Of a DNA stretch of 64,000 bases, positions 9,100 to 34,677 are shown piece after piece. The translations under genes and the position numbers were made by a program. Every line of letters begins with the position of its first letter. Position 1 is the first letter of the stretch. The DNA comes from a virus. The DNA is taken from positions 46,271 to 110,270 of IMG/VR virus record IMGVR_UViG_3300021087_000857. One strand, 5' to 3'. The notes beneath the pieces are model-generated. The model did no database searches, was not told where the DNA came from, and worked only from the letters and a program-made list of their open reading frames with translations.

Positions 9100-9396
9100 A
9101 TGCCAATAGAACGAAAAGACAGGTCTTTCGATCTGATCTTTGACCAAGTATCTATGGATCATGTTCCAGCTGAATATATCAAGGAAGTTAGAGTAGATCT
9201 AGGTACAGGTGAAAGAATAACACTAACAAAAGAAGATTTGCAGATGATTAAAAACAAGTCTGCAGATGAAATTATTAAAGCATTAACAGTAGACTCAATG
9301 TCTAATATCAGTTTAAAGTTAGATTACACTGCTATTAAATCAGATGTTATGCGAGGTGTCTCGGGCTTTTTAGGAAAACACTTTGACGACAAGTAA
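9100..9396 (+). CDS. hypothetical protein
   Basis: RBS, in operon. Confidence 0.75.
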   Translation: MPIERKDRSFDLIFDQVSMDHVPAEYIKEVRVDLGTGERITLTKEDLQMIKNKSADEIIKALTVDSMSNISLKLDYTAIKSDVMRGVSGFLGKHFDDK

Positions 9397-10087
9397 CATA
9401 TGGTTTTGTGGAATACCAGGAAGTAGGTGGAGCGGTATCGATATACAGATGCGTTCCATTTTACCCTGTGATCGCACAGACGAAACTCCAGAAAGAACAC
9501 AATATCACAGAGCGTTTGATCCAAACGATGCTAATAATGGTCATCGTGGTAGCTATTGGGGTCCTGGCATGGGATGTGGTAAAGACTGGGTAGACTTTAA
9601 TTTTTTAACAAAAAACAAATTGCAAGATGATATTAATAATGTATTCTCTGGTACAGGATATAGAATAATTAAGAGTCATTTTTTTGCAAGAAAATTTAAC
9701 TTAGACTTTATATGGAATAACTTTCCAGGTGATCGTATAGTGCTAATATATAGAGAGCCTCAAAAAAGTTTTGCGTGGTGGAGTGAAGTAATGGATATGG
9801 CACCAGAACATTATCCAGACTATAGACCAGGATATACTGACTATAACACCATGCGTGAATTACTATGGAAAGAGTCTGCAATTATAACAGACTTTGCCAT
9901 ACGTAAAGGATTAACATTCAAACCTTACAGTACACATGAATTTTCCTCTTGGAAAGGTTTTGACCATGCTAGTGCATTTCAAATAGACTTTGAAAAGATA
10001 AATAATACTAAGCACAAAGATGTTTTTATAACATCGTGTCAAATACCAAATCAAAGGAATAATGTTCATGACTTTCCAAAATCTTAA
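9383..10087 (+). CDS. sulfotransferase/P-loop-like protein
   Basis: N-terminal FCGIPGSRWS loop, IIKSH, IVLIYR; TTG start. Confidence 0.5.
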   Translation: MTTSNIWFCGIPGSRWSGIDIQMRSILPCDRTDETPERTQYHRAFDPNDANNGHRGSYWGPGMGCGKDWVDFNFLTKNKLQDDINNVFSGTGYRIIKSHFFARKFNLDFIWNNFPGDRIVLIYREPQKSFAWWSEVMDMAPEHYPDYRPGYTDYNTMRELLWKESAIITDFAIRKGLTFKPYSTHEFSSWKGFDHASAFQIDFEKINNTKHKDVFITSCQIPNQRNNVHDFPKS

Positions 10088-10162
10088 GAACATACAGTAT
10101 ATTGATAAAATTAATACTGAACGTTATCTTGCGATTGGACAAAATAAAATATAGAGAATAAT

Positions 10163-11590
10163 ATGTCAGATAGTAAATTACCAAGCGATACTTTTTGTAT
10201 ACTTCCGTGGATACATTTAAGTACTAGACCAGATGGAAGTATGAGAGTATGTTGTACTGCTAACGCATCAAGTGTAGGAGCAACAAATGATAAAGCACAC
10301 GGTGGAAGAGTAGGTATTGTTAAAACAGAAGATGGCAAGCCTGCTAACCTAAACAACAGTGATCTTAACAGTAGTTGGAATAACAGCTATATGCGAAGTG
10401 TTAGACAAATGATGCTTAAAGGCGATAAGCCAGCAAGTTGTTTAAAATGCTACAAAGAAGAAGATGCAGGACACAGATCAAAGCGTCAATGGGAAACAGA
10501 CTATTGGATGCGTGATGGTATTGATGTTGACGAACTAGTAGCTCAAACATACGAAGATGGATCAACAGATAGTAAACTACGTTATATTGATATTCGTATG
10601 GGAACTAAATGTCAATTAGGTTGTGTTATGTGTAGCCCACATGATAGTTCAGGTTGGGTGAAAGACTGGAACAAGTTATATCCAAATATTACAAATGAAT
10701 CTCTAAAAGAAACTATGAATTGGGATTCTAAAGGTAAAACGTTTGGTGCTAGTTATAATTGGCACAAAGACAATCCAGTATTTTGGGATCAGTTTTATGC
10801 ACAAATTCCATACATTAGACAGTTATACTTTGCAGGCGGCGAAAGTACAGTTATTGAAGAACATTATAGTATTTTATCTAAAGTTATTGAAATGGGGTAT
10901 GCACATCAAATTGAAGTACGTTATAATTCAAACGGAATTGAACTACCAGATAGACTATTAGAACTATGGACACATTTCCAAAAAGTACGTTTCCATTATA
11001 GTATTGACAGTATTGGTGTAATGAATGATTATATTCGTTACCCAAGTGAATGGGACCATCAACTTAAAATGTTTGAACGTTTAGATAAAGAAACATCTAA
11101 CAATGTAGAAGTTACAATTGCATGTGCCGTTAACGCTCTTAACATTCATTATATTCCAGACTTCCTTAAATGGAAACTTCAGGATAGCGGACTAAAGAAA
11201 ACAAATATGTGGCCATTTGGTGCAGGCGGTATTAACTATCACTTTGTATACTGGCCAGGACATTTGAATGTTAAAGTACTACCAGATGAATTCTTAGATA
11301 AGACTGAAGCTAAGTATGAAGAATTTATTGAATGGTGGAAAGAAAATTGGGAACTAGGTGTTCCAAGTTGGCATAAAGGTAAAGTAACCAAAGAACAATG
11401 GCTAGATGCGAGTTATGGAATTAAACGTTTACGTGGTATGATTAGTTTTGCTCGCAGTGAAGATTGGAGTAGACGCTTACCAGAATTTAGAGAATATATT
11501 AATAAACTAGATGAGTTACGTGGAACTGATTTCCGCAATACATTTCCAGAAATGGCATACTTACTAGATGAACCGGAGAATGATAAATGA
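10163..11590 (+). CDS. radical SAM protein with N-terminal twitch/SPASM-like domain (#1)
   Basis: CILPW...VCC...CLKC, then CQLGCVMC and FAGGE. Confidence 0.9.
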   Translation: MSDSKLPSDTFCILPWIHLSTRPDGSMRVCCTANASSVGATNDKAHGGRVGIVKTEDGKPANLNNSDLNSSWNNSYMRSVRQMMLKGDKPASCLKCYKEEDAGHRSKRQWETDYWMRDGIDVDELVAQTYEDGSTDSKLRYIDIRMGTKCQLGCVMCSPHDSSGWVKDWNKLYPNITNESLKETMNWDSKGKTFGASYNWHKDNPVFWDQFYAQIPYIRQLYFAGGESTVIEEHYSILSKVIEMGYAHQIEVRYNSNGIELPDRLLELWTHFQKVRFHYSIDSIGVMNDYIRYPSEWDHQLKMFERLDKETSNNVEVTIACAVNALNIHYIPDFLKWKLQDSGLKKTNMWPFGAGGINYHFVYWPGHLNVKVLPDEFLDKTEAKYEEFIEWWKENWELGVPSWHKGKVTKEQWLDASYGIKRLRGMISFARSEDWSRRLPEFREYINKLDELRGTDFRNTFPEMAYLLDEPENDK

Positions 11591-12162
11591 AATATTTATT
11601 AGTCGCACTTGAAAATGAAGTGCCAAATATCGATTTACCCGATGATTATACACTAATGATTACAGGTGTAGGTAAAGTAAATGCTACTGTAATGGCTACT
11701 ATTGCCGCTAGACAACCAGACTGTGAATGTATTATTAACTACGGAACAGCAGGAACTTTTAATCCTAAACTAGTTGGTAAACTACACAGAATTGGAATAG
11801 TAAAACAACGCGATATGGATGCAAGACCACAAGCACCATTAGGAACTACTCCATACGAAGATACAAAATTCAGCAGTGATTTGCAACTTTATAAAGGAAG
11901 TAAATTTACATTAAGCACAGGCGATAACTTTGTAAAAGCCAACCCCGAAATGCAAAGTGACTTTGTAGACATGGAAGGGTATGCTATTGCAAAAGTGGCA
12001 GGTATGTTTAATAAGCCATGTATGATGTTAAAATATGCAAGCGACTTAGCTGACGATAAAGCACCAGAAGAATGGGAAAAGAATCAAGCCAAAGGCAAAG
12101 ATATGTTCCTAAAATGGCTAGATGATTTAGAAAAGAATATCCAAGAAATAAACGATGAGTAA
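11587..12162 (+). CDS. MTA/SAH (5'-deoxyadenosine) nucleosidase-like protein, PNP_UDP_1 family
   Basis: TGVGKVNA, INYGTAG, STGDNFV, VDMEG, SDLAD. Confidence 0.85.
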   Translation: MKYLLVALENEVPNIDLPDDYTLMITGVGKVNATVMATIAARQPDCECIINYGTAGTFNPKLVGKLHRIGIVKQRDMDARPQAPLGTTPYEDTKFSSDLQLYKGSKFTLSTGDNFVKANPEMQSDFVDMEGYAIAKVAGMFNKPCMMLKYASDLADDKAPEEWEKNQAKGKDMFLKWLDDLEKNIQEINDE

Positions 12163-13414
12163 TTCGGGCTTTTGTGCATTACCATTTGTTCAATATAGTA
12201 CTTACAACGGAGGACGTTTTAGACTTTGTTGTATGGCTAAAGAACCTAAAGAACTAGTCAATCAAGAAGAACTAGGAATTGATGGCACTTGGAATCACAA
12301 TTATATAAAAGACGTAAGACGCAGAATGACTGCTGGTGAGAAATTATCAGAGTGTATTGAATGTCATCATTTAGAACGTAACGGAATAATGAGCTCACGC
12401 CAATGGGAAAATAAAGTGTGGGCAGACGTAATAGATGATGTAGTAGCAGACGCATCAGCTAATGATTGGGAGATTGACCAGCCTCTACAATTTGATTTTA
12501 GACTTGGTAACTTATGTAATTTGCAGTGTCAAATGTGCAACAAAGAAGCATCTCACTTAGTGAGTGTGGAAAGAGCCACAATGGTACAAAGCGGACTCGG
12601 AGCGAACCATCCTGATTGGGACGGCAATATTGCAAACAAAAAACAAGCATTACTTCAACCTGGAATAGAGTGGGAGAGCTTTGAAAGAATGTTACCATAT
12701 GCTCGCAAAATAAAACTAATAGGTGGCGAGCCTACAGTTGCTCAAGACATGTTTAAATTGTTAGACATTGCAACTGCAAGTGGTCATGCAGAACATATAG
12801 AATTAAGTTTTTATACAAACATCACTAACATGCAAGATAAATGGTTAGACCAACTATCTAAGTTTGAGAAAGTGATTGTTAACTGTTCATTGGAAGGAAT
12901 GGAAGATATGAATGATTATCTTAGGCCTCCAAGTAAGTGGGCAAGTGTATGGAAGAACTTTGATAAGTTAGTTAAGTTCTCAGATACAAAAGAAGGTAAA
13001 CGTATAAAGGTACGAGTTACTACAGTAAACCAAATAACCAATGCATTGCATACTGCTACATTTTGGAAGTTTATGCATGATTATCAGATGACTAGTAATA
13101 GAGGCATTGGTATGAGTACTAACCAATTAGTAGAGCCAGCATACTATAGTATGGCACATGCTCCTGAATGGTTGAAAGAAGAACAACGTGAACAGATTTT
13201 GGAATTTCTCAAAAGCATTGGCAACAGTCCACATTTTGAGCAATACGAAGAACCTCTTATGGAACTTGTTAATTTTAGTTTGGATCCTGAGCATAAGTAT
13301 GATGCTGACATCATGCGCCAGTATGTCAAGATCACCGAAAACTACGACAGATTCAGAGGACACGACATTATTCAAGTGTCGCCCGAATTTAGAAGAATTA
13401 AAAGAGACCTCTGA
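12155..13414 (+). CDS. radical SAM protein, N-terminal twitch (#2)
   Basis: CALPF...LCC...CIEC; CNLQCQMC; IGGEP. Confidence 0.9.
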   Translation: MSNSGFCALPFVQYSTYNGGRFRLCCMAKEPKELVNQEELGIDGTWNHNYIKDVRRRMTAGEKLSECIECHHLERNGIMSSRQWENKVWADVIDDVVADASANDWEIDQPLQFDFRLGNLCNLQCQMCNKEASHLVSVERATMVQSGLGANHPDWDGNIANKKQALLQPGIEWESFERMLPYARKIKLIGGEPTVAQDMFKLLDIATASGHAEHIELSFYTNITNMQDKWLDQLSKFEKVIVNCSLEGMEDMNDYLRPPSKWASVWKNFDKLVKFSDTKEGKRIKVRVTTVNQITNALHTATFWKFMHDYQMTSNRGIGMSTNQLVEPAYYSMAHAPEWLKEEQREQILEFLKSIGNSPHFEQYEEPLMELVNFSLDPEHKYDADIMRQYVKITENYDRFRGHDIIQVSPEFRRIKRDL

Positions 13415-13472
13415 TTTAACTAAAGCAGAAACCTATCATCGATGGGATTGTAAAGTAACTGTAGACTTTTAA
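13236..13472 (+). CDS. putative lipoprotein overprinted on the 3' end of radical SAM #2
   Basis: +1-frame ORF (TTG 13236 or GTG 13188) with an h-region and lipobox LTSC. It fills the gap to the convergent gene and shares TTAA with it. Confidence 0.55.
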   Translation: MSNTKNLLWNLLILVWILSISMMLTSCASMSRSPKTTTDSEDTTLFKCRPNLEELKETSDLTKAETYHRWDCKVTVDF

Positions 13473-14299
13473 AACTTTTTAATACGTTCTGCCATACATA
13501 GCTCAGGCTTGAGCAAACTTTCATTTAATATATCAGCTTCAAAGCATTGTAACTTTGTGCCAAATACAATTTGGTGAGTAATCCATTGTGCATTAAAGAA
13601 CCAAATATCACCTGGATCAAAAGTAATATAATGTAATGGGTGGTGAAACTGATCCCATTTTTCTTCATTCCATACACATCTATCACGCATTCCAGTAATA
13701 AATGTATGTATGTTGTTTTTATCTAGTTCACCTAAGTTAAACTTATCTTTGTACATGTTATACATTTGTTGTAAGTCTGGACCACACGATAATACTCTAG
13801 GACGCTTTTTATCTAATTGAACAAACATACGTATCTGTTGTTCTAGTCCAGTGTGTTGTTCATCTAGTTCGTCCAAGTGTAGTTTATTTTCTACTAGTGT
13901 ATTATATCTATGACTAAGCATACGTTCACTTGTTTTGTAATGTGGGAATAACATATCAAATACTTCGTTCCATCCATTGTTAGCTTGTTTGTGTTTTTGA
14001 TGAAATACATTAATTTGCTCGTCATTCCAACCACGTTCTATATGCATACGTGATCTATTTTTAATATGACTGTTATACCAAGGCATAATCCATTTGTTAT
14101 CTTTAATAGTCCAGTCTGGTAAGTCGTCATAGTAATCATAATCTAATTGTGGTATAGTTAGATTTTTAATAACCACCGGCCAGCCACTTTCAAATGCTTC
14201 GTATAGTTTAAAATTGTCTTTTAGGTCGTGTTTATTAGCGTCGAAAACATTGACAATGAAGTCGTTTCCTGCTATAATATCTTTAGCGATACGGGTCAT
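13469..14299 (-). CDS. Kdo-hydroxylase (KdoO)-like Fe(II) dioxygenase
   Basis: LHLD, IRMFVQLD..RPRV, FDPGDIWFF...ITHQIVFG. Start ATG 14299 after GGAG. Confidence 0.6.
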   Translation of the reverse strand: MTRIAKDIIAGNDFIVNVFDANKHDLKDNFKLYEAFESGWPVVIKNLTIPQLDYDYYDDLPDWTIKDNKWIMPWYNSHIKNRSRMHIERGWNDEQINVFHQKHKQANNGWNEVFDMLFPHYKTSERMLSHRYNTLVENKLHLDELDEQHTGLEQQIRMFVQLDKKRPRVLSCGPDLQQMYNMYKDKFNLGELDKNNIHTFITGMRDRCVWNEEKWDQFHHPLHYITFDPGDIWFFNAQWITHQIVFGTKLQCFEADILNESLLKPELCMAERIKKF

Positions 14300-14328
14300 G
14301 TTGTATAAAACTCCATTTGTGTGTATAG

Positions 14329-14348
14329 ATAAATACATATATATTTAT
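14329..14348. promoter_or_regulatory. overlapping bidirectional late-type promoters
   Basis: ATAAATA-CATATA-TATTTAT lies between two divergent genes. Confidence 0.55.
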
Positions 14349-14404
14349 GCAAGTAAAAATCCAAGTTCAACGCATATTGAACAAACATCATATGAGAATA
14401 AAAA

Positions 14405-15490
14405 ATGACAAAATCAGTTAATGTATGGAGCGAATTTCAGCCCCTAAAAAGAGTAGTGCTAGGAGCACCGTTTCCACCTGAAACATTTGATTGGCACGAG
14501 GACGAAGAAACACGCAATGTAATGCGTCAAATCTTTAAAGAAACAGCCGAGGACATAGCAGTGCTGGAGGGAATATTAAAGGACAGAGGTATTGAAGTAG
14601 TACGTCCTAAAAATATATTTACAATCACAGGTGAAGAACAAATTAAATTACCATGGATGCATTGTGGGTTTCCTAACCACCCATTAATGCCACGTGATAC
14701 ACTTATGCCGTATGGCAATAGTATATTTGAATGTTTTACAGGTAGCGATAATCGTTACTTTGAGAATCTCGCATATTACGATCATTGTAGTAAATGGTTT
14801 AGTGAAGGTGCAGATTGGGTTAGTATGCCAGGAGTATTAGTAGAAAGTGGTAAAAAATATGACCACTTTGTAGATAATCATCGACTGCTTTATCATGCGG
14901 CTAACATGATAAAGTGTGGACGCCACGTTTTGTTTAGCCAACCCTATGAGGGAGACAATAAACGAGGCAGAGGTACGGAGCTGGGCCGTGAATGGATTCG
15001 TAGAGAAATAAAACTACGTTATCCAGATACAAAGTTTTTGGACATTCCAGTAGGAGGACATATCGATGGTAAAATAGCATTGCTAAAACCTGGTGTGCTA
15101 ATGACCTGGAATGCAAATTGGGTTCCTAAAGAAATGGAAGGTTGGCACATTATTGAAGTAGATGATGATTTTGACATGCCAGAAGATTTCCAACAAACTC
15201 GTAAGAAAAGATTCCACAAAGAATATGTAAGCAAGTGGTTAGAGCATTGGGTAGGTTGTCCAGACGAAAGTGTGTTTGATGTTAACGTACTATCACTAGA
15301 TGAAAAGACGGTAATTTGTACAGGTAAAAATGAACAAGCATTTGCTGAAATGGAAGCACATGGCATTGAACCAATATACTGGAACTTTAGACATCAGTAT
15401 TTTTGGGATGGTGGCATACATTGTTTAACAAGTGATATTGTTAGAGAAGGTGGGCAGGAAGATTATATAACTAACAAAAGGTACTATTAA
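14405..15490 (+). CDS. amidinotransferase (glycine/inosamine-phosphate amidinotransferase family)
   Basis: WSEFQPLKRVVLG, PRD, GHIDG, GGIHC (Asp-His-Cys catalytic set). Confidence 0.85.
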   Translation: MTKSVNVWSEFQPLKRVVLGAPFPPETFDWHEDEETRNVMRQIFKETAEDIAVLEGILKDRGIEVVRPKNIFTITGEEQIKLPWMHCGFPNHPLMPRDTLMPYGNSIFECFTGSDNRYFENLAYYDHCSKWFSEGADWVSMPGVLVESGKKYDHFVDNHRLLYHAANMIKCGRHVLFSQPYEGDNKRGRGTELGREWIRREIKLRYPDTKFLDIPVGGHIDGKIALLKPGVLMTWNANWVPKEMEGWHIIEVDDDFDMPEDFQQTRKKRFHKEYVSKWLEHWVGCPDESVFDVNVLSLDEKTVICTGKNEQAFAEMEAHGIEPIYWNFRHQYFWDGGIHCLTSDIVREGGQEDYITNKRYY

Positions 15491-16539
15491 TGAGTTGGTA
15501 CAAGAACCTACATAAATTACAACTTGACCCAACAAGTCATTGTAATGCAAGATGCGGTGCTTGTGCTAGAAATATATACGGTGGTGAAACTAGACACGAC
15601 TTGGAATTAAAACATTTTGACTTAGAGTTATGGAAAAGAATAGCAATCGAAGACACTAAAGAGTGCTACATAAATCATTTAAGTCTAAATGGAAATTGGG
15701 GCGATGCTTTAATGCACCCAGATATAATAGAAATAATTGAAATTTGGAATACATATCATCCAGAAAGTGAAATGGCAATAGCAACAAATGGAAGCCTACG
15801 TAGTACAGAGTTTTGGAAAAAGTTAGCCAACGTACTAAGAAACACTCCTCGACATAGTCTTGAATTTTCAATGGATGGAATGGAAGATACACATCACATT
15901 TATAGAAGAAAAACATCACATTCAAAGTTAGTAGATAATATTAAAACTTTTGTAGATGCAGGTGGAACTGCAAACATATATATGACTTTATTCGAACACA
16001 ACAAACACCAAATTAAAGAAGTAGCAAACTTATCTAAAGAATTAGGTGCTGATGGATTTTATATAAGGCATAGTCATCGTAGTAAGATGAAAATTATAGA
16101 CGGTGAAGAACGATACGATATAGAAGGTTATTTTCCAAAAATAATAAAAGGCTCTTTTACTTTTCCAAAAAATAAAAAAATAAATAGTGATGCAAGAGAT
16201 AGTAAAATACACATACAAAATAATGAAAAAATTAAACCAAATACAACAAGTAAATGTCCTTGGAAACAACAACACAAAGTACAAATTGATCCATGGGGAA
16301 TAATATGGCCTTGTTGTTATGTAAGTAAGTATGGTGGTGGTGGGTCAATGACAGGTTTTAATATGGACGAAATTTTTTCACCAGGCAATGATAATATTAT
16401 TAATAATGTATTTGAACAAAATGATGTAAACAAGTATACCTTAAAAGAAATATTAGAAAATAAATGGTTTAATACAACAGTAGATAATGCAATAGCAAAG
16501 TCTGAATGGAATATTTGCAATGAAACTTGCGGAATATAA
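15490..16539 (+). CDS. radical SAM protein with C-terminal SPASM/twitch (#3)
   Basis: CNARCGAC; NGNWGD; CPW...WPCC...CNETC. Confidence 0.9.
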   Translation: MSWYKNLHKLQLDPTSHCNARCGACARNIYGGETRHDLELKHFDLELWKRIAIEDTKECYINHLSLNGNWGDALMHPDIIEIIEIWNTYHPESEMAIATNGSLRSTEFWKKLANVLRNTPRHSLEFSMDGMEDTHHIYRRKTSHSKLVDNIKTFVDAGGTANIYMTLFEHNKHQIKEVANLSKELGADGFYIRHSHRSKMKIIDGEERYDIEGYFPKIIKGSFTFPKNKKINSDARDSKIHIQNNEKIKPNTTSKCPWKQQHKVQIDPWGIIWPCCYVSKYGGGGSMTGFNMDEIFSPGNDNIINNVFEQNDVNKYTLKEILENKWFNTTVDNAIAKSEWNICNETCGI

Positions 16540-16548
16540 GGAATAACA

Positions 16549-17649
16549 ATGAATTGGTATAGACAGATACATAAATTACAAATAGATATAACAAGTCATT
16601 GTAATGCTAGATGTGGTGCTTGTATAAGAAATATAAATGGAGGTGCAACTCATCCAGGTTTAAAACTAACCCATTTTGATGTAGATGTTTGGAAACGTAT
16701 GGCTACCGAAGACACTAGAGGTTGGTGGGTTAGGCAGCTAACACTAAATGGAAATTGGGGCGATCCAATGATGCATCCTCATTTAGTAGAAATGTTAGAA
16801 ATATGGATTACTGCTCACCCGGAAACTTTTATATCTATTGCAACAAATGGAAGTATGCGTAGCACTAAGTTTTGGTCAGACCTTGCTACAATATTACGTA
16901 AAGGATCTCATCACAAAGTTGATTTTGCAGTAGATGGAATGGAAGACACGCATCATATATACAGACGAAAAACTGTGTTTTCTAAACTAAAAGAAAACAT
17001 AAAAGCATTTACAGATGCAAAAGGACAAGCAATTGCAGTAATGACAATGTTTGAACATAACAAACATCAAATAGAAGAAGTAAAAGAATTGGCAAGAGAA
17101 GTAGGTTGCAAACACTTTATTGCAAGAAGAAGTCATAGTGATCATATGCTTATCGAAGACGGTGACGAACAATACGAAATAAAAGGTTGGTATCCAACTG
17201 GAAATGGCGAGCATGTAATTGATAACGATACTCCGGAACTTGAACAAGACTTTCCCGAAAACGAACATCCACTAAGTGTAAATAGAGACAGAATATGGAT
17301 GAGAGCTAATGAACGTTTTGAAGAATTAAATGATAATCATATACCAAGTAAATGTCCTTGGAAAGATGAAGGGGAAGTACAAATAGACCCATGGGGTGTT
17401 GTATGGCCTTGTTGTCATGTAAGTTTATATGGCGGTGCTGGAGCATCAGAAAATATGTCTATAAAATTAAACTTTAATGAAGAAGCTGAACAAACTAATT
17501 TTATCGAAGAAGGAAAAGAATCAAACAGTTTGCATAATAGATCGTTAAAAGATATATTAAATAATCAATGGTATAATGATACACTTAATCATGCTATAAA
17601 AAATGCAGATTATGATGTGTGCAGACGTAGTTGTGGGATATGTAAATAA
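16549..17649 (+). CDS. radical SAM protein with C-terminal SPASM/twitch (#4), tandem paralog of #3
   Basis: CNARCGAC; NGNWGDP; DGMEDTHHIYRRKT shared with #3. Confidence 0.9.
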   Translation: MNWYRQIHKLQIDITSHCNARCGACIRNINGGATHPGLKLTHFDVDVWKRMATEDTRGWWVRQLTLNGNWGDPMMHPHLVEMLEIWITAHPETFISIATNGSMRSTKFWSDLATILRKGSHHKVDFAVDGMEDTHHIYRRKTVFSKLKENIKAFTDAKGQAIAVMTMFEHNKHQIEEVKELAREVGCKHFIARRSHSDHMLIEDGDEQYEIKGWYPTGNGEHVIDNDTPELEQDFPENEHPLSVNRDRIWMRANERFEELNDNHIPSKCPWKDEGEVQIDPWGVVWPCCHVSLYGGAGASENMSIKLNFNEEAEQTNFIEEGKESNSLHNRSLKDILNNQWYNDTLNHAIKNADYDVCRRSCGICK

Positions 17650-26061: not shown

Positions 26062-27010
26062 AAACGGTGTAACAATAGGACCTACTGGAGCAGTAAGGCC
26101 TTGTTGTGCATTTCAGGTAAAAGAAGGAACAAATAATTTATTTTGGGATGATGATTGGGAAACACGTCATGCTGAATGGAGTAAGCGTAGCGAAACACAA
26201 TGGCTAGACGAATGTGCTGAATGTAAACTAAGCGAAGAACTAACAGGAAATAGTTTACGTAAAATATACAATAAGCAATTTGATAACGAAGTAGGCATTA
26301 AACATTGGGATTTAAAAATAAACAATACTTGCAACTTTGCTTGCAGAATGTGTAATCAAACAAGCAGTAGTACATGGGCAAAAATACTTAAAGAAAATCA
26401 ACAAGAGAATTGGCACCCTCAATTTGGAAAATTAAAAGATAGAAGTTGGGTAAAACAATCACTAGATTTTACTCATCAAATGTTAGATGCAAAGATTGTA
26501 AAATTTACTGGCGGTGAACCATTTATGATACCACAAGTAAAGAAGATCATACAACGATTAGTAGATGAAGATGTTGCACCTGCAATCGAATTACATTTAA
26601 TAACAAATGGAAGTTATGATATGACTACATGGAATCATTACTTTGAAAAATTTAAACAAGTTCATGTTAATATAAGCATAGAAGCAGTAGGTAAACGATA
26701 TGAGTATATAAGACCTGGATCTAGTTGGATTACAACTAGTGACAATGCAGTTAAATTTAATAAGTATAAACCAAAGAATACATATTTAAGTGTGTCTATA
26801 CTTCCTATGGTATTTAATAGAAACAATTTAGATGATGTAGCAACTTGGTGTAAAGACAATAAAATTAGATATGATGTTTCTACACCTGTAATAAAGCCTG
26901 CGTTCATGTCGCCAAATGCTATGGAAGATGAAATATTAAAAAAAGAATTAATAGAGCAGAGTGAAATTATGGATAAAATACATGGAACAGATTATCATGA
27001 CTTTATTTAA
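26039..27010 (+). CDS. radical SAM protein, N-terminal twitch (#8)
   Basis: C...RPCC...CAEC; CNFACRMC; TGGEP. Confidence 0.88.
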   Translation: MPRCSIFKNGVTIGPTGAVRPCCAFQVKEGTNNLFWDDDWETRHAEWSKRSETQWLDECAECKLSEELTGNSLRKIYNKQFDNEVGIKHWDLKINNTCNFACRMCNQTSSSTWAKILKENQQENWHPQFGKLKDRSWVKQSLDFTHQMLDAKIVKFTGGEPFMIPQVKKIIQRLVDEDVAPAIELHLITNGSYDMTTWNHYFEKFKQVHVNISIEAVGKRYEYIRPGSSWITTSDNAVKFNKYKPKNTYLSVSILPMVFNRNNLDDVATWCKDNKIRYDVSTPVIKPAFMSPNAMEDEILKKELIEQSEIMDKIHGTDYHDFI

Positions 27011-27011: not shown

Positions 27012-27018
27012 ATAAATA
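27012..27018 (+). promoter_or_regulatory. late-type promoter motif ATAAATA
   Basis: In a short intergenic gap before the AAGGA-ATG of 27034. Confidence 0.45.
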
Positions 27019-27033
27019 TTAATAAGGAAAATA

Positions 27034-28251: not shown

Positions 28252-28810
28252 GATATTATGTACAGGAAATCCAGAGTTTGGAGTAGCAAGTGCTATAGCA
28301 GAACGCTGGCCTGATACAACATTTGTTAATAGAACAGATTGGGGCTACGATTTAACGCAAAATGGCTATAAAACTAAGTTAGCCGAAAAGGCTCTTAATT
28401 ATGACGTCTTTATTAACTGTAGTGCATTATGGCAGTACCATCAAACTTTGCTACTAGATGTAGTCTATAAGAACGCCTTAAAGAACCTTAAACGACTGCA
28501 TATAGTGTCGTTGGGCAGTACAACAGACAGAGCTACCAAAGGTAGCGATTGGCATTATCAACAAGAAAAGAAGGCTTTGCGTAGTACAAGCAACGCATTA
28601 GGGTTAAAAAGCATTTGGGCTGGTGGACCTAAAGTAAGTTATGTTACATTCGGTACATTAGAAAACAATGCACACAAGCATCCAGGCAGAGCAGTAATGC
28701 AGTTAAATGATGCAGTAGACATGATTGAGTATGTAATTAATATGCCATATCATTTAAATGTAAATGAACTAAGTATAGACCCTATACAGACGGATTGGCC
28801 AAATGAATAA
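28244..28810 (+). CDS. short-chain dehydrogenase/reductase-like protein
   Basis: ILCTGNPEFGVA, DVFIN, YQQEK (YxxxK). Likely start MYKIL at 28244. Confidence 0.7.
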   Translation: MYKILCTGNPEFGVASAIAERWPDTTFVNRTDWGYDLTQNGYKTKLAEKALNYDVFINCSALWQYHQTLLLDVVYKNALKNLKRLHIVSLGSTTDRATKGSDWHYQQEKKALRSTSNALGLKSIWAGGPKVSYVTFGTLENNAHKHPGRAVMQLNDAVDMIEYVINMPYHLNVNELSIDPIQTDWPNE

Positions 28811-29975
28811 ATTTTGCTACATGCCTTGGCATGCAATTACGCTAAGTGCAAATGGTGACATTAAGCCTTGTTGTCAGTTTAGTAACAAAGGGCGTATGCC
28901 TAATACTGAACATGACACTATTATGGAAAACTTTAATAGTGAGCGTATGCAAGACTTACGCAAAGACTTTTTAAAAGGTGTACAACCTAGTGCTTGCAAC
29001 AGTTGTTGGGAGAGAGAAGATTTAGTAGGGCAAAGTAGACGCTTATGGTTTAATAAGAAGTTTATGAAATTTAATGCAGATTTTATAAACGGCAACCACC
29101 CTACAACATATGATGTTCCTAACCCTAAGTTCTATCAAGCAGACATTAACTTATCAAATGTATGTAACTTAAAATGTCGTATGTGTGGAAGTTGGGCAAG
29201 CAATAGTTGGTTTGACGAAGAATTAGCACTTGCTAAAATAGACAAACGCTACGAGAAAAATAGTAATCCTATTCCATTGCAACAATATGGATTAGAAGAT
29301 TTACGCAATATGCTACCGCATCTAAAAGATGTAAAACGCATAGACTTTAAAGGTGGTGAGCCCATGATGGCAAAACATCACAATCAATTCCTACAATGGC
29401 TCATTGAAGAAGGTATGACTGATGTAGAATTATTTTATACAACAAACGGCACAGTTGTTAATCCTAAAATATTAAACTTGCTAAAACAGTTTAAACATGT
29501 TAGTATATGTTTTAGTATAGAAGGCACAGGAGAGCTATATAGATACATCAGAGGTGGCAAATATCAATTAGAAGATTTTGAAAAAACACTAGCAATGTAC
29601 AATGAATTAGAAAATGTAAAAATTATGTTCAATGTAACACTGCAAAATTATAACGTTTTCAACTTGCCAGAATTGCATTTCTTCCTTCACGAAATGGAAG
29701 ATAAATATAGTAAAGTAAGTGCAAACAGTAGTTTCACTACTATCTGTAACAAACCAGCATATTTAAGTCCAATGAACTTACCAGATGATTTACGAGATCA
29801 AGCAATTAAAAACTTATCTCTGTTTGATGATTTTGACAAGCTAGTAGAGAGTATGAAGACTAGAACATTTAATCCTGAGCTATGGGAAACATTTATTAAC
29901 TTTACAAATGACTTAGATAAAATGCGAGGCGACAGTGTAAGGGATGCAGTGCCTCAACTAAAGGAATATTTTTAA
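28803..29975 (+). CDS. radical SAM protein, N-terminal twitch (#10)
   Basis: CYMPW...PCC...CNSC; CNLKCRMC; KGGEP. Confidence 0.9.
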   Translation: MNKFCYMPWHAITLSANGDIKPCCQFSNKGRMPNTEHDTIMENFNSERMQDLRKDFLKGVQPSACNSCWEREDLVGQSRRLWFNKKFMKFNADFINGNHPTTYDVPNPKFYQADINLSNVCNLKCRMCGSWASNSWFDEELALAKIDKRYEKNSNPIPLQQYGLEDLRNMLPHLKDVKRIDFKGGEPMMAKHHNQFLQWLIEEGMTDVELFYTTNGTVVNPKILNLLKQFKHVSICFSIEGTGELYRYIRGGKYQLEDFEKTLAMYNELENVKIMFNVTLQNYNVFNLPELHFFLHEMEDKYSKVSANSSFTTICNKPAYLSPMNLPDDLRDQAIKNLSLFDDFDKLVESMKTRTFNPELWETFINFTNDLDKMRGDSVRDAVPQLKEYF

Positions 29976-30691
29976 TGCTAGTAGCTTTAGAAGACAATCA
30001 CGCACCAAAAGACGAACTACTTAGAGTAGAATGGAACTTGGGTAAGCGTTGCAACTACAACTGTAGTTATTGTGGAAATGAATTACACAATAAGACTAGC
30101 GACCATATGAGTTGGGAAGTATACACTGCTACAATAGATAAAATAGTAGAAGCATCAAATGGTAAAAAGATTAAAATTAGTTTTACAGGTGGTGAGCCAT
30201 TTGTACACCCACAGTTTATTGACATGTTAAAATATGCTAAAGAGAACGGCGTATACAGATGTAGTGTAACAACCAACGGAAGTCCTCCACCTAAGATATA
30301 CAAAAAAGCATTGCCGTATTTACATTATGTTATTATAAGTTATCACTTTGAATTTGCATATCATGAGAAAGTAATTAATAACATTACAGGTATGTGGGCA
30401 GACATACAGGAATATAGAGCTAAAGATGACTACAAAGGAATGCATGTACATATTATGGCGTTGCCTGGACACATGGATAAATGGAAAGAAATTATAAACG
30501 AATTAAAAGAGTGTGGCGTTGAATATACAGTTCGTAAAATTAGGCCACGTGTTAATGAAAACCGTACAGGTTGGAATAAACCATATGCTGACGGTATGTT
30601 AGGGCAACATCCTATACATGAAGAAACTGAAAAGTTTGCTGGACAATATTATAGTGTAGAAGAAGAAAAATGGTTAACTGAAAATGTATGA
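29975..30691 (+). CDS. radical SAM core only (#11, N-terminal half of a split gene)
   Basis: WNLGKRCNYNCSYC, TGGEPFVHP; no auxiliary Cys domain. Confidence 0.85.
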   Translation: MLVALEDNHAPKDELLRVEWNLGKRCNYNCSYCGNELHNKTSDHMSWEVYTATIDKIVEASNGKKIKISFTGGEPFVHPQFIDMLKYAKENGVYRCSVTTNGSPPPKIYKKALPYLHYVIISYHFEFAYHEKVINNITGMWADIQEYRAKDDYKGMHVHIMALPGHMDKWKEIINELKECGVEYTVRKIRPRVNENRTGWNKPYADGMLGQHPIHEETEKFAGQYYSVEEEKWLTENV

Positions 30692-31874
30692 AGATAAAGT
30701 AAGAGAGTGGTTAATGCAACCCGGTAATAACTTTTGTGCGTTGCCATTTACACATATGGCAATAGAAGCCAACGGCGATATAAGACCTTGTTGTATGGGC
30801 GATGAATTTGATTTAAACATTAGAAATAAAACAATACAACAAGTATACAACGACCCAAAAAGACTACAATTTGTAGACAGTTTTAGACGAAACGAACAAA
30901 ATCCTGCATGTCATAAATGTTGGAAAGATCCAGAAATAAGAGCTAATTTTTCAACATCACCTCATGCCAGAGAAATAACAAAACAAGCAATGGACGGAAT
31001 AACACCTAAGCATGAATTAAAATGGTTAGAAATTAAACCAGGAAATAGATGTAATTTAAAATGTAGAATATGTGGAGTACATAATAGTAGTAGTTGGACA
31101 AAAGATACTGCGGCAATAGAAGAGCCCAAAGTAAAGTATAAAAACAGCGAAGCATTTAAATATACGCAATCATGTGATTGGATAGATGATCCAGAATTTT
31201 GGAATGATCTAAATCAACTAGAATCAATAGAGTATTTGCATTTTATGGGCGGCGAACCTTTTATGGTTCCTGAGCACTTTCAATTAATAGAACGTTTAGT
31301 AAACGATCCTAACATTGATACTAGTAATATTACAATCGGATACAATACAAATGGAACATACTTTCCTAGCAAAGAAAACTTTGAGCTATACAATAATTTT
31401 AAGCAAGTAAACTTTGCATTAAGTATAGATGATATTGATGAGAGATTTAACTACCAGCGTAAATTAGCTAATTGGGAAGAAGTAAAAAGTAATATTAAGA
31501 ATTTTCAAAAATTAAATAAAGACCAATATTTTGTACATTTGGATCCTACTATAAGTATATATAATATATTTTATTTAAATGAAATCACTAAAACATTTAA
31601 TGATTTAGGATATCATAATTTTATTAAACAACGACATTTTGTAAATAATGGGTATAACGCAATTCACATATTACCACAACATATAAAAAGTGTTATTGTA
31701 GAAAAGTACAAAGACACTGATAACATATGGATTAAGCGAGCAGTAGATTATATGAATAGTCAACCAACAGATAATAACTTATGGGAAATATTTAAAAAGA
31801 ATACTACTAGATTAGATTCATTAAGAAGCGAAAACTTTCAAAACACATTTAAGGAATTTTATGAGCACTTTTAA
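30684..31874 (+). CDS. radical SAM protein, N-terminal twitch (#12)
   Basis: CALPF...PCC...CHKC; CNLKCRIC; MGGEP. Confidence 0.9.
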   Translation: MYEDKVREWLMQPGNNFCALPFTHMAIEANGDIRPCCMGDEFDLNIRNKTIQQVYNDPKRLQFVDSFRRNEQNPACHKCWKDPEIRANFSTSPHAREITKQAMDGITPKHELKWLEIKPGNRCNLKCRICGVHNSSSWTKDTAAIEEPKVKYKNSEAFKYTQSCDWIDDPEFWNDLNQLESIEYLHFMGGEPFMVPEHFQLIERLVNDPNIDTSNITIGYNTNGTYFPSKENFELYNNFKQVNFALSIDDIDERFNYQRKLANWEEVKSNIKNFQKLNKDQYFVHLDPTISIYNIFYLNEITKTFNDLGYHNFIKQRHFVNNGYNAIHILPQHIKSVIVEKYKDTDNIWIKRAVDYMNSQPTDNNLWEIFKKNTTRLDSLRSENFQNTFKEFYEHF

Positions 31875-32187
31875 AAACATTATTGTACACTATGAAGATG
31901 GTACAAGCGAAGAAGATAACGTAAACAGTGTTATGGCACGTGATGAAAATGATTTTCGTGGATGGGAATGTTGGGCTGGTGTACAAAATATTACTATAAG
32001 TAACACAGGTGATGTGTATAGAGCTATATGTAAAGTGGGTGGCAAACTAGGAAACATTTATGATGGGTTTGAAATGCCTAAAGAAACTATTATATGTAAT
32101 AAGCCAAGATGTGTATGTGCTGCTGATGTACAGTTATCAAAAGCACTACCAGAACATGTGCATAAATTAAGGGTAGGAAATGAATAA
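31861..32187 (+). CDS. stand-alone SPASM/twitch domain (C-terminal half of #11)
   Basis: FRGWECWAG...GDVYRAIC...LGNIY...ICNKPRCVCAAD matches the C-terminus of #14. Confidence 0.8.
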   Translation: MSTFKNIIVHYEDGTSEEDNVNSVMARDENDFRGWECWAGVQNITISNTGDVYRAICKVGGKLGNIYDGFEMPKETIICNKPRCVCAADVQLSKALPEHVHKLRVGNE

Positions 32188-33508
32188 AGAATTTTGGAAC
32201 AGTGATAAAACAAATAAGTATGAAGCTTTTTATGAACATGCAGTAGATAAACTAAAAGGTCTAGATGTAAACATACATACTTTTTGCCCATTGCCTTTTA
32301 CTCATGTAAGTACTATGCCACATGGAGAAATAAAGTTATGTTGTAGAGCACAACCACCTCAACATGGACCTAACCCAAATGTTAAAGACAAAGATTTTAA
32401 TCTCAAAGAATACTGGCAAAGTGAATACATGAACGAAGTACGTGATGATCTTATATTAGGTAAAAAGCACTTCCAATGTAAAAATTGTTGGAAAATGGAA
32501 GACAATGAAATTGTTAGTTTACGTATGAATAGGCTTATGGATCTTATGGATAATGAGATCTATAGAAAGAATATAGAATATTATATAAGACATAGAGAAA
32601 TAGAATTTAAAATTCCACTCATTGAACTTAAATTAAGTAACGTATGTAACTTTAAGTGCAGAATGTGTTGGCCAAAAGACAGTTCAAAATGGGTTACTGA
32701 TTGGGATAAAGTAAAAGAGTTTTACAGTGTGGGTGATAAACGTTATATAGAAGAAATAGTAGACAGCAATGATTTACGTAAAACTCGTGTAATGAATTTA
32801 TATGAAAAGGACGAAGAATTTGTAGGGAACCTAATTGAGCTTATGGAACACGTAGAAGAACTTGAATTTGCAGGTGGCGAGCCTCTTATGGACCCAATTC
32901 ATTATCGTGTACTAGACAGTATTCCGCACCCAGAAAATGTTACATTAAAATATAGTACAAATTTAAGTATTATGAAAATGGGTAAACATAGCGTAATTGA
33001 CTTGTGGAAGAAATTTAAAAAAATTAAATTAACAGTTAGTATAGACGGACACCGAGAACTTAATCATATGATTCGTAGAGGATCTGATTGGGATTTATTA
33101 AAAAGCAATATTGAACTAGTTAAAAGAGAACTTGATAACTTAGATGTTATTAAAGGAACTACTTGTATAAGTGGTATGAATGCTGCGGAATTAGGCGAAA
33201 CAGCGGAAGCAATTGTATTTGAACTAGGCATACACTGGCATACAAGCCGTGTACAATGGCCTGATTTCCTACATGCAAATGTATTAAGCCCAGAGCAACT
33301 ACAAACAGGAATAGACGGCTTAAAACGGGTATTTGATAGCTTAAACACGCCAGAAAGATGCGAAACTCCTAGGCGTACTATGTTTGAAACACATTTAAAT
33401 GGTGCTATTAGTTGGTTAGAAACATGTATAAAAGATAATAAACATACAGAAAAATACGAAGCATTTAGTAAATTTAATGAAACAATAACAGATATGGATA
33501 AAGAATAA
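32180..33508 (+). CDS. radical SAM protein, N-terminal twitch (#13)
   Basis: CPLPF...LCC...CKNC; CNFKCRMC; AGGEP. Confidence 0.9.
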   Translation: MNKEFWNSDKTNKYEAFYEHAVDKLKGLDVNIHTFCPLPFTHVSTMPHGEIKLCCRAQPPQHGPNPNVKDKDFNLKEYWQSEYMNEVRDDLILGKKHFQCKNCWKMEDNEIVSLRMNRLMDLMDNEIYRKNIEYYIRHREIEFKIPLIELKLSNVCNFKCRMCWPKDSSKWVTDWDKVKEFYSVGDKRYIEEIVDSNDLRKTRVMNLYEKDEEFVGNLIELMEHVEELEFAGGEPLMDPIHYRVLDSIPHPENVTLKYSTNLSIMKMGKHSVIDLWKKFKKIKLTVSIDGHRELNHMIRRGSDWDLLKSNIELVKRELDNLDVIKGTTCISGMNAAELGETAEAIVFELGIHWHTSRVQWPDFLHANVLSPEQLQTGIDGLKRVFDSLNTPERCETPRRTMFETHLNGAISWLETCIKDNKHTEKYEAFSKFNETITDMDKE

Positions 33509-34677
33509 TGAGTGATAAAGATTTAAAATGGAGTGAATACGACTTTACAAAAACACCGTATGAAGATATAGTTCGAGTAGGACAACGTACTATGTTATAC
33601 AGAGATATGTTTACAGTAAGTTGGTTGCTAGGTAGATTTTGTAACTACAATTGTAGTTATTGTTGGCCTTATGCTAGAAGTAATAGAAAAGATCACAGAC
33701 CTACAGAACTTAACTTAAAAACAATCGATGAGATTAAACGTCAGGCACGTGAGCGTGGCTTTAATAGTTTCCACTTTAGTTTAAGTGGAGGTGAACCTAC
33801 GTTCCATCCAGGCTATTTAGATATGTTAAAACATTTAAGTGATGATTGTCATAACACCAATTATACAAGTGTACATATGACAAGTAACTGTAGTCGTAAC
33901 ATGAAATGGTTTAAAACTTATGTGGACTATGCTTCAAAGTTTCATAGAGCTAGTATTACTTGTAGTTTACATGTTGAGCATGTTGACACAACTGAGAAGA
34001 TGCAGGATCTTGCAGACAAACTTATACTATGCCAAGAACACGATGTACAAGTAACTATTAACATGGTTATGGTTCCTGAAGTTTTTGATCAATATTATGA
34101 TAATGCATTGTTTTTCCATAATCAAGGAATTAATGTTACACTTAAACCTCAATCAGACCCAACTGCAAGTAGAGTAGTTGATGGTTATACAGAGGAAATG
34201 AAAAAGAAATTACACAATGGTATGCCACAACGTGGATACACAGAAGCAAAAGCAAAACAAAAGAAGTTAGTAACTAGACCAGACCCAGCATTTAAAGTAG
34301 ACATAGAAGATGAATATAGAAAACAGACCGCAGCAGTTCCGTGGCATATGCAAGTAGAATTCAGAGATAGCAAAGGTGATCCTTATTACATGGATCAAGC
34401 AGAACGCTTTAATGCATTTGACTTTAACAAGTTCAAAGGTTGGGAATGTAGTAGTGGATACCGCAGTATAATTATACGTGAACCAGATGGTTCTATTAAA
34501 CGTAGTTATAGTTGTGGAGATCAACCGTTGGGTAATATTGAAACAGGATTTAAGTTATTTGACGGTCCTGAAATATGTACTACCAATGCTTGTGTAAGTA
34601 GTGCTGATAGTAAAATTCCAAAACGTGCACCAGGAACAAAAATGCCTCTATTTCCTGGTGATGAAACTTTTAAATAA
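33508..34677 (+). CDS. radical SAM protein with C-terminal twitch (#14)
   Basis: WLLGRFCNYNCSYC; SGGEP; FKGWECSSG...LGNI...CTTNACVSSAD. Confidence 0.9.
   Translation: MSDKDLKWSEYDFTKTPYEDIVRVGQRTMLYRDMFTVSWLLGRFCNYNCSYCWPYARSNRKDHRPTELNLKTIDEIKRQARERGFNSFHFSLSGGEPTFHPGYLDMLKHLSDDCHNTNYTSVHMTSNCSRNMKWFKTYVDYASKFHRASITCSLHVEHVDTTEKMQDLADKLILCQEHDVQVTINMVMVPEVFDQYYDNALFFHNQGINVTLKPQSDPTASRVVDGYTEEMKKKLHNGMPQRGYTEAKAKQKKLVTRPDPAFKVDIEDEYRKQTAAVPWHMQVEFRDSKGDPYYMDQAERFNAFDFNKFKGWECSSGYRSIIIREPDGSIKRSYSCGDQPLGNIETGFKLFDGPEICTTNACVSSADSKIPKRAPGTKMPLFPGDETFK

Follow-up and report, generated by a model that had tools for sequence, protein, structure and literature searches.

The window analysed here, which is the last 64 kb of the 110,270-bp linear viral contig IMGVR_UViG_3300021087_000857, contains between positions 9383 and 34677 an array of 14 radical S-adenosylmethionine (radical-SAM) genes interleaved with genes for tailoring enzymes. 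All coordinates are window positions, and each gene is called by its left coordinate. The array is a real, selected and very large radical-SAM tailoring cluster. It is dominated by enzymes carrying their twitch domain at the N-terminus (N_Twi), and represents a new, N-twitch-dominated variant of the phage modules with radical-SAM, amidinotransferase and glycosyltransferase genes that have been unexplained since 2010. In addition, the array has a previously unreported counterpart in Bdellovibrionota.

The source contig is 32% complete by CheckV estimate. The encoded DNA polymerase shares 44-49% identity with its counterparts in 350-490-kb jumbo phages of the T4 superfamily, such as Atu_ph07, Yersinia fHe-Yen9-04 and Serratia BF, and phage-typical families including ThyX and a MoxR-type ATPase are encoded upstream.

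Composition and conservation of the array

The region 9383-34935 contains 26 open reading frames (ORFs) on the plus strand and one on the minus strand. By their coordinates, 21 of the 24 same-strand junctions overlap or abut, in line with the earlier note on this DNA, which had described about 25 kb of mostly coupled genes. Its count of ORFs with a CX3CX2C motif is also exact, with 14 in 9383-34677 and a 15th at 46168-47361 on the minus strand. The whole 110-kb contig holds 19 intact radical-SAM genes, 13 of the N_Twi type and six others. None of the array proteins has a predicted membrane segment and all are predicted to be soluble. The genes are listed below. Bit scores refer to the NCBIfam model NF033640 (N_Twi_rSAM), and dN/dS is the ratio of nonsynonymous to synonymous substitution rates.

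9383-10087, plus: 234-aa protein at the head of the array, function unassigned; orthologs in related phages 63-78% identical, dN/dS 0.13
10163-11590, plus: N_Twi radical-SAM no. 1, core member common to Bdellovibrionota; 418 bits
11587-12162, plus: nucleosidase-like protein of the methylthioadenosine/S-adenosylhomocysteine type; Pfam PNP_UDP_1 5.6e-14, MtnN models 1e-9 to 1e-18
12155-13414, plus: N_Twi radical-SAM no. 2; 293 bits, dN/dS 0.05-0.08
13469-14338, minus: probable Fe(II)/2-oxoglutarate (2OG) oxygenase, KdoO-like, the sole minus-strand array gene; Bdellovibrionota homolog and invariant HxD...H
14405-15490, plus: pentein-fold amidinotransferase-like protein; Protein Data Bank (PDB) sequences HsvA 8.8e-24, SxtG 2.9e-18, StrB1 3e-17 and AGAT 1e-14, dN/dS 0.07-0.10
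15490-16539 and 16549-17649, plus: tandem radical-SAMs (15490-17649) with N-terminal SAM cluster, a variable slot; Pfam Radical_SAM in both, C-terminal SPASM in the second
17649-18899, plus: N_Twi radical-SAM no. 3; 252 bits, dN/dS 0.04-0.06
18892-19797, plus: short pyridoxal 5'-phosphate (PLP)-type protein, fold-type I aminotransferase-like; weak Pfam Aminotran_1_2 match (1.7e-3) and motifs
19790-20932 and 20925-22163, plus: N_Twi radical-SAM nos. 4 and 5; 214 and 314 bits
22160-22336, plus: accessory ORF of 58 aa, from ORF coordinates
22337-22621, plus: accessory 94-aa ABM/DUF3291-like protein (Pfam), among relatives only in the G002-type
22608-23894 and 23894-25315, plus: tandem paralogs with a GT-A (glycosyltransferase A)-like N-domain and a class-I SAM methyltransferase-like C-domain, from the predicted structure of 23894
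25312-26061, plus: Fe(II)/2OG oxygenase of the Asp/Asn beta-hydroxylase (AspH/LpxO) family; Pfam Asp_Arg_Hydrox (PF05118) 5.1e-10
26039-27010, plus: N_Twi radical-SAM no. 6, short, a variable slot; 182 bits
27034-28251, plus: N_Twi radical-SAM no. 7; 382 bits
28220-28810, plus: short-chain dehydrogenase/reductase (SDR)-like protein; TGxxxxG, Ser and YxxxK motifs, dN/dS 0.05-0.10
28803-29975, plus: N_Twi radical-SAM no. 8; 321 bits
29975-30691, plus: 238-aa short radical-SAM core, first half of a split enzyme; Pfam Radical_SAM 3e-17, CNYNCSYC as in 33508
30684-31874, plus: N_Twi radical-SAM no. 9, a variable slot between the split-enzyme halves; 281 bits, orthologs 52-83% identical, dN/dS 0.31-0.38
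31861-32187, plus: 108-aa stand-alone Cys-rich twitch-like domain, second half of the split enzyme; dN/dS 0.04-0.08
32180-33508, plus: N_Twi radical-SAM no. 10; 297 bits
33508-34677, plus: 389-aa radical-SAM with C-terminal twitch-like domain, core member common to Bdellovibrionota; Pfam Radical_SAM 2e-13

All 15 ORFs match the Pfam model Radical_SAM (PF04055), 14 of them above its 29.5-bit cut-off. The remaining one, 10163, lies just below it at 28.1 bits, yet gives the highest score on NF033640. The curated cut-off of NF033640 is 170 bits and its model has 398 positions, of which members cover about 330-397. Ten of the 14 array genes and the 15th gene are members (182-418 bits), and 15490, 16549, 29975 and 33508, at 34-46 bits, are non-members. 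NF033640 is a family known as a catalogue entry; 11 genes in the window match nearly its full model, and here it is expanded to 13 copies in 110 kb. The twitch domain is N-terminal in these proteins: in eight of the 11, Pfam SPASM is found at residues ~5-100 and is followed by Radical_SAM at ~115-340.

Alignment of the 11 N_Twi paralogs shows that the cysteines of CX3CX2C and the GGE motif are kept in all. Of the N-terminal cysteines, C11, C81 and C84 never vary and C29/C30 hardly do, giving a C-x17-C...C-x2-C spacing that may resemble the twitch pattern of BtrN. The paralogs are mutually 22-32% identical and retain all cluster ligands, and thus agree with the earlier description of them as highly diverged yet motif-keeping. 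No member above the cut-off occurs in 14 well-known control genomes. In metagenomes, 27034 has 2279 homologs at E<=1e-5, Tara Oceans records included, and the best 120 of these 2279 are 50-98% identical. The nearest ESM Atlas clusters are 90-100% viral.

The AlphaFold2 (AF2) model of 27034 has a mean predicted local confidence (pLDDT) of 80. Its matches to solved structures comprise SkfB, BlsE, anSME, viperin, SuiB and MoaA, at E 2e-6 to 1e-3, and CteB is also among the best. These matches are generic for radical-SAM enzymes and do not separate substrate classes, and the fold search returned no solved structure close to N_Twi. The comparison with twitch/SPASM enzymes made in the earlier note is apt as far as the class is concerned; the family is specifically NF033640, with its twitch at the N-terminus. 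BtrN and BlsE, the latter being the second-best fold match (E 3.9e-6, 20% identity), likewise bind one auxiliary 4Fe-4S cluster through a twitch domain, whereas their twitch is C-terminal, so that the domain order is permuted, and sequence identity is at background level. BlsE acts on a sugar nucleoside. Twitch enzymes with a single auxiliary cluster, BtrN for example, reportedly have small molecules as their substrates (Grell, Goldman and Drennan 2015, JBC, cited in PMC5332604). Literature searches yielded no functional study of N-terminal twitch radical-SAM enzymes.

Vicingaceae/Flavobacteriales loci (L083, L087-L092) carry, around position 10000, an N_Twi-like radical-SAM gene of ~355 aa whose product is 24-30% identical to 27034. 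The genes around it are conserved and include hemL, hemE, hemB and one for a ChaN-type heme-binding protein. This linkage hints that some relatives of the N_Twi family may act in tetrapyrrole metabolism; as all the loci belong to a single bacterial family, it may be shared synteny.

The four non-member radical-SAM proteins are the tandem pair, 33508 and the core of the split enzyme. Both 15490 and 16549 contain CNARCGAC, are ~28% identical to the radical-SAM-SPASM member of the bacterial core trio described below, and have orthologs in relatives that are only 44-72% identical. The stand-alone domain 31861 shares 30-35% identity with the C-terminus of 33508-type proteins. Its identity is 48% with the C-terminal part of a fused protein in a Bacteriovoracaceae chromosome, where the two halves are one protein of 353 aa (L031:18025-19086). 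From these alignments, 29975 and 31861 appear to constitute a split paralog of 33508, a natural separation of the radical-SAM core from its auxiliary-cluster domain.

Among 15 related IMG/VR loci, the array is kept in strict synteny in the five long relatives. Orthologs of array genes in related giant-phage contigs are mostly 70-98% identical. Nei-Gojobori dN/dS of array genes is 0.04-0.38, mostly below 0.15; it is 0.04-0.08 against the closest relative (dS 0.2-0.5), and rough in many other comparisons, in which dS is near saturation. The earlier note had held that the paralogs have distinct maintained activities and that dN/dS near 1 would speak against this; the values obtained, together with the close orthologs of each paralog, agree with its proposal. 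As cluster ligands are kept, close orthologs exist and each paralog is under purifying selection, we conclude that the array is a maintained multi-enzyme modification or biosynthesis pathway. The relatives differ at the variable slots 15490/16549, 26039, 30684 and 23894, and their contigs contain 7 to about 18 N_Twi genes each. Moreover, the array of one related phage (G001) includes a second, divergent amidinotransferase paralog (L016:11812-13020, 24% identical), so the amidino step can be duplicated.

A counterpart in Bdellovibrionota and modules of other phages

A scan with 10163 against one genome per prokaryotic species identified orthologs 57-64% identical in Bdellovibrionales/Bacteriovoracaceae, including complete chromosomes and the isolate Bdellovibrio sp. 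HCB2-146. A core trio, composed of a 10163-like, a 33508-like and a radical-SAM-SPASM protein, is found in 26-30 of 33 loci. The 33508 orthologs are 57-65% identical and adjoin the 10163 ortholog in 26 of the 33 loci; the radical-SAM-SPASM member is 28-42% identical. On the phage contig, a radical-SAM-SPASM gene lies at G000:17591-18685. Many bacterial loci add N_Twi paralogs, homologs of the SDR, PLP and amidinotransferase (39-45%) proteins, and the fused form of the split enzyme. In a Pseudobdellovibrionaceae metagenome-assembled genome (MAG), a cluster of ~21 kb has 18 stretches matching phage proteins, 17 of which are array proteins. Five sampled bacterial genomes contain 7-14 N_Twi genes each, and at least one N_Twi gene occurs in 26 of 121 genomes in an even sample of the phylum. 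Genes of the GT2 and GT-C classes flank two bacterial loci (L031 and L047).

The Bdellovibrionota clusters thus share with the array the core trio, amidinotransferase, PLP-type, SDR-like and KdoO-like proteins, homologs of the AspH-like and GT-A/methyltransferase proteins, and paired N_Twi paralogs. They differ in being chromosomal, in genomes of 2-4 Mb with 40-51% GC in the sampled true chromosomes, in gene order, and in having the hydroxylase fused to the GT-A/methyltransferase protein. We found no description of these multi-radical-SAM clusters in the literature searched.

Trees built with FastTree address the relationship between the two sets of genes. The tree of 88 N_Twi proteins pairs five or more phage paralogs with a bacterial paralog each as sister, the pairing with Bdellovibrionota paralogs being supported at 97 for 17649, 97 for 19790 and 99 for 20925. 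These one-to-one sister pairs indicate that paralog diversification predates the sharing. In the 10163 tree the phage clade is nested among bacterial ones, whereas in the 33508 tree the phage and bacterial clades are reciprocally monophyletic; both trees carry long-branch warnings. The two trees thus point to no single direction of transfer. The array is not a recent import, since its GC content (32-37%) fits the phage (34.6%) and not the 40-51% of true bacterial chromosomes.

Three side observations concern these loci. The closest homologs of 10163 outside IMG/VR (64% identical) are in L027 (JAUHVL010000001.1, a contig of a MAG labelled 'bacterium') and L026, both with 33% GC. The 4-Mb bin of L027 has N_Twi genes on many contigs and may stem from either a phage or a low-GC bacterium. 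In some loci (L036 and L040) a MoxR AAA_3 and DUF58 pair lies a few kb upstream of the 10163 ortholog, which is probably coincidental. A 235-aa gene beside the Bdellovibrionota 10163 ortholog was considered as a relative of 9383 and rejected, as the proteins are unrelated.

A smaller module is found in cultured phages. Timms et al. 2010 (PMC2853527) reported 11-12 radical-SAM genes in the Campylobacter phages CP220 and CPt10, with an amidinotransferase in each cluster, and described the radical-SAM module as interchangeable and of unknown function. The annotated CP220 locus contains five radical-SAM proteins, an amidinotransferase, two proteins of the nucleotide-diphospho-sugar transferase fold (GT-A) and a PAP2 phosphatase. 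CP220 and CPt10 belong to the T4 superfamily and, like our contig, combine radical-SAM and amidinotransferase genes with GT-A-type transferases, which in them adjoin the amidinotransferase. Their module is smaller, with five radical-SAM genes in CP220; the CP220 radical-SAM proteins are ~290-340 aa with an N-terminal SAM cluster and are not of the N-twitch type, and the amidinotransferase is only 24-26% identical to that of the array. The CP220 radical-SAM proteins were not among the matches when an N_Twi protein served as tblastn query. Megablast of the whole array against cultured phages gave no match, and tblastn of an N_Twi protein against them gave 20 records (KVP40-like phages, RsoM2USA and Vibrio K566 among them) at <=25% identity. 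As these matches are few and weak, no cultured phage in the collection shows such an N_Twi array. Among uncultured phages, a marine T4-like genome with 12 radical-SAM genes and Fe-S cluster assembly genes was described by Nishimura et al. 2017 (PMC5332604). It resembles our contig in having many radical-SAM genes and its own Fe-S assembly, a comparison based on the published count alone; in that study the radical-SAM genes were only counted, and nothing was given on their family, the genes around them or a counterpart in bacteria.

This recurrence bears on whether the block has a common product at all. A loose set of unrelated auxiliary metabolic genes, for instance oxygen-independent substitutes for host enzymes, would be in keeping with the Vicingaceae gene that lies among heme genes. 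Such a set appears extremely improbable given the 21 overlapping or abutting junctions, the strict synteny across relatives, and the return of the same combination of enzyme families in Bdellovibrionota and, the N_Twi type excepted, in CP220.

Partner enzymes and candidate pathway

The tailoring enzymes named in the earlier note are largely borne out, with differing firmness. Its amidinotransferase, 14405, matches HsvA over residues 19-355. The equivalents of Cys340, His219 and Asp221 are invariant, and the Cys (GGIHC) and His (GHxDG) are unchanged in all of nine homologs; the catalytic triad of AGAT is Cys407, His303 and Asp254. The SDR assignment of 28220 is supported by its motifs, and its bacterial homologs give weak adh_short matches. 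The ABM protein is confirmed, and the nucleosidase holds at the family level through PNP_UDP_1 and the MtnN models; 11587 scores 97.8 bits on NCBIfam 'nucleosidase' NF004168, below the 129-bit cut-off, and its probable role is the clean-up of 5'-deoxyadenosine. For the PLP enzyme, 18892, the support comes from motifs, with D160-x-A162 and S185-x-x-K188 invariant across 15 homologs. The profile matches are weak, a PDB profile search giving aminotransferases only, at E about 0.5, and the bacterial homologs are 27-45% identical.

Of the two Fe(II) oxygenases that had been proposed, the AspH/LpxO-type 25312 is confirmed by Pfam (39.8 bits on PF05118 against a 22.6-bit cut-off). The second, 13469, has no direct Pfam or PDB match and is weakly supported via a Bdellovibrionota homolog, 31% identical, that matches Pfam Kdo_hydroxy at E 1.1e-3 over positions 5-259 of 275; in this family H154-x-D156 and H236/H255 are invariant. 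The sulfotransferase-like call for 9383 found no support, as the protein has no match in Pfam, NCBIfam or PDB. PDB sequence profile searches gave nothing useful for 22608/23894, 18892, 13469 or 9383.

The tandem proteins 22608 and 23894 are ~20% identical to each other and received no sequence-level annotation. The AF2 model of 23894 (pLDDT 78.6) aligns in VIA-align through residues 9-260 with GT-A folds (Z 9-10.8, 140-186 aligned residues) and through residues 264-464 with methyltransferase folds (Z 9-11.7). Its Foldseek matches are weak (E 2e-3 to 2e-2) and are all GT-A or nucleotidyltransferase folds. The acidic motifs DD (158-159) and EDD (222-224) are kept in the 23894 group only, and one acidic residue (84) is common with the 22608 group.

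Taken by family, the partners of the radical-SAM proteins (amidinotransferase-like, PLP, SDR, KdoO-like and AspH/LpxO-like, GT-A plus methyltransferase) appear to be small-molecule or sugar-type enzymes. We favour, at somewhat less than even confidence, the reading that the block is a cytoplasmic pathway editing a carbohydrate-type scaffold (a sugar, cyclitol or nucleotide-sugar) that is then handed to an acceptor. A sugar-type substrate is suggested by these partner enzymes, by the single-cluster twitch architecture, by the GT-A folds and by the recurrence of radical-SAM, amidinotransferase and GT-A genes in three unrelated genomic settings. In such a pathway, the SAM cluster of each diverged radical-SAM enzyme would abstract one particular hydrogen while the single twitch cluster at the N-terminus acts as redox partner, and each enzyme would perform a different oxidation, epimerisation, dehydration or C-C/C-methyl step. 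The PLP-type protein would transaminate keto intermediates, and the amidinotransferase-like enzyme would turn the resulting amines into guanidino groups. The two Fe(II)/2OG oxygenases would hydroxylate and the SDR would reduce, while the two proteins with GT-A and methyltransferase folds would methylate the unit and transfer it to the acceptor, at a first guess a glycan on a virion or cell-surface protein. We infer both the substrate class and every chemical step. As to the targets proposed in the earlier note, the virion or the host surface, neither is singled out by the predicted solubility of all array proteins or by the occurrence of the homologous cluster in free-living predatory bacteria.

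The supply of cofactors is partly encoded beside the array in one block:

40083-49996, minus: support module with Prs, IscA-like, Apt, N_Twi no. 11 (46168-47361), NifU-like, 7Fe ferredoxin, SufT-like and PepA proteins; Pfam/NCBIfam

A metK gene is found upstream of the window (G000:C1:39712-40779). By their families, MetK, Apt, Prs, the NifU-, IscA- and SufT-like proteins and the 7Fe ferredoxin probably provide SAM regeneration, Fe-S clusters and electrons, and such a dedicated supply suggests high flux. Within the proposed pathway, the nucleosidase, Apt, Prs and MetK would recycle 5'-deoxyadenosine into SAM, and NifU, IscA, SufT and ferredoxin would deliver clusters and electrons. The heavy supply of SAM and adenine salvage, together with the solubility of the enzymes, could also serve hypermodification of DNA or nucleotides, in which the array's enzymes would make or modify a side chain carried by phage DNA bases or by nucleotides. 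Known pathways of thymidine hypermodification employ radical-SAM, PLP and transferase enzymes. Homologous clusters are nevertheless present in bacterial chromosomes without phage context, and Pfam searches of the 13 non-radical-SAM array ORFs gave no DNA-binding, nucleotide kinase or base-transferase match, so we consider this use very unlikely.

Several points weigh against the sugar-scaffold pathway. We know of no NF033640 enzyme with an established reaction, and the fold matches of N_Twi are generic and include the peptide maturases SkfB, anSME and SuiB. The Asp254 equivalent of AGAT (AAD motif) is Asn in 14405, and this position is Asn, Cys or Gln across the phage, Bdellovibrionota and CP220 amidinotransferase-like proteins. 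The GT-A assignment is modest, coming from Z 9-11 matches to a model of pLDDT 79 with no DxD invariant in both paralogs, and the array lacks a nucleotidyltransferase, a sugar dehydratase, a flippase and any acceptor that could be recognised. Judging from the Vicingaceae gene among heme-synthesis genes, the family need not be sugar-specific. In addition, members of the AspH family are mostly known to hydroxylate proteins.

The last point leads to maturation of a protein or peptide, in which radical-SAM enzymes and oxygenases would modify residues of a phage (virion) protein or of a peptide resembling post-translationally modified peptides of ribosomal origin (RiPPs), and the hydroxylated residue would then be glycosylated in collagen-type fashion. 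The best structural matches of N_Twi, with CteB besides the three peptide maturases above, are in line with this. Moreover, an AspH-like hydroxylase is fused to a 23894-like domain in Bdellovibrionota (L049, 808 aa; L026; L030) and also in viral clusters, recalling the lysyl hydroxylase-glycosyltransferase LH3, which is among the fold matches, and all enzymes would be cytoplasmic, where virions assemble. Such maturation is nonetheless unlikely in our judgement. No conserved precursor-like short gene was found, as the ORFs of 58, 85, 94, 98 and 108 aa in or beside the array are not repeat-rich or Cys/Ser-rich and one of them is the twitch domain. The radical-SAM proteins match only Radical_SAM, SPASM and Fer4_12 in Pfam, with no PqqD-type RiPP recognition domain at E up to 0.01, although divergent ones are easily missed. 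The auxiliary domain is a single-cluster twitch and not a full SPASM, and partners of the amidinotransferase, aminotransferase and SDR types speak for chemistry on small molecules.

Small-molecule chemistry could also end in a diffusible metabolite, the cluster then making a free guanidino-aminocyclitol or aminoglycoside-like compound that acts, for example, on the host or on competing phages. The set for oxidation, transamination and amidination, the StrB1- and SxtG-like matches of the amidinotransferase and the homologous cluster in predatory bacteria are consistent with such a product, for which the twitch radical-SAM enzymes of aminoglycoside pathways are a functional precedent. Against it stand the absence from the array of an exporter, resistance gene, phosphotransferase or membrane protein, the two copies of the GT-A-like transfer domain, and the GT2 or GT-C genes flanking L031 and L047, which together make a free compound distinctly unlikely. 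Action at the membrane on lipopolysaccharide, as the family names KdoO, LpxO and PagP might suggest, was given a low rank, since none of the array proteins contains a membrane segment.

Within the favoured sugar-scaffold pathway, a more far-reaching form can be drawn, which we regard as rather doubtful. Here, N-terminal-twitch radical-SAM enzymes would form a class of C-H editors of carbohydrates not described before, and giant phages and predatory Bdellovibrionota would share an ancient modular cluster, with a conserved three-radical-SAM core and swappable N_Twi members, that builds a guanidinylated, multiply functionalised sugar shown on the surface of the virion or predator. Through the variable slots, its structure would be diversified in a recognition arms race.

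Flanking signals and biological meaning

The ATAAATA motifs at 8119, 14329 and 27012, which the earlier note had taken as late-type signals, are present. The window contains 16 copies against 44.8 expected, a three-fold depletion, and they are almost always on the coding strand; depletion and strand bias fit a promoter-like element. In promoters of the T4 late type, TATAAATA precedes the start of the late transcript by about 10 nt. This octamer occurs twice in the 64-kb window against 13.5 expected, and the full TATAAATA has no copy within the array. That both TATAAATA and ATAAATA are depleted suggests that stray copies of a genuine promoter element are selected against. A search for TTGACA-N17/18-TATAAT identified two candidate sites in the array:

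14250-14278, plus: putative sigma70 promoter, TTGACA-17-TATAAT with TG, 127 nt upstream of the amidinotransferase gene; 12/12 consensus match only
22758-22787, plus: putative sigma70 promoter inside the array, 12/12 TTGACA/TATAAT; consensus match

The first lies upstream of the ATAAATA at 14329 and would predict that the host polymerase transcribes from it. With these perfect consensus sites inside the array, the statement that it has no sigma70 promoter was wrong, and the proposed late expression finds no support, as the full TATAAATA is absent from the array. A further perfect sigma70 consensus (TTGACA-17-TATAAT with TG) was seen at 35659-35727 on the minus strand, directly downstream of a terminator-like hairpin with a 9-bp stem. 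It marks where a block of minus-strand genes starts, which converges with the array at about 34.9 kb.

Upstream of the array, the window encodes a DegP/HtrA-type serine protease with an N-terminal hydrophobic segment (1860-3122; NCBIfam degP_htrA_DO 2.4e-45), a 117-aa protein with a weak PHROG match to the PagP lipid A acyltransferase (3187-3540; 3.9e-6), and a MoxR/CobS-like ATPase (phrog_1297) together with a phrog_1314 protein (3911-6279). No tRNA genes were found in the 64-kb window.

Radical-SAM chemistry and its supply lines take about one fifth of the 110-kb contig. No reaction is known for the dominant enzyme family, although its relatives in metagenomes number in the thousands. Should the product of the array be a decoration or metabolite of the sugar type, carbohydrate biochemistry would gain many new radical reactions. 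Two cultured handles are at hand, the Campylobacter phage CP220 with its smaller module of radical-SAM, amidinotransferase and GT-A genes, and Bdellovibrio sp. HCB2-146 with the core trio; they make the question open since 2010 directly testable. If the reading is true, the trait would be common to two bacterial killers, giant phages and Bdellovibrio-like predators.

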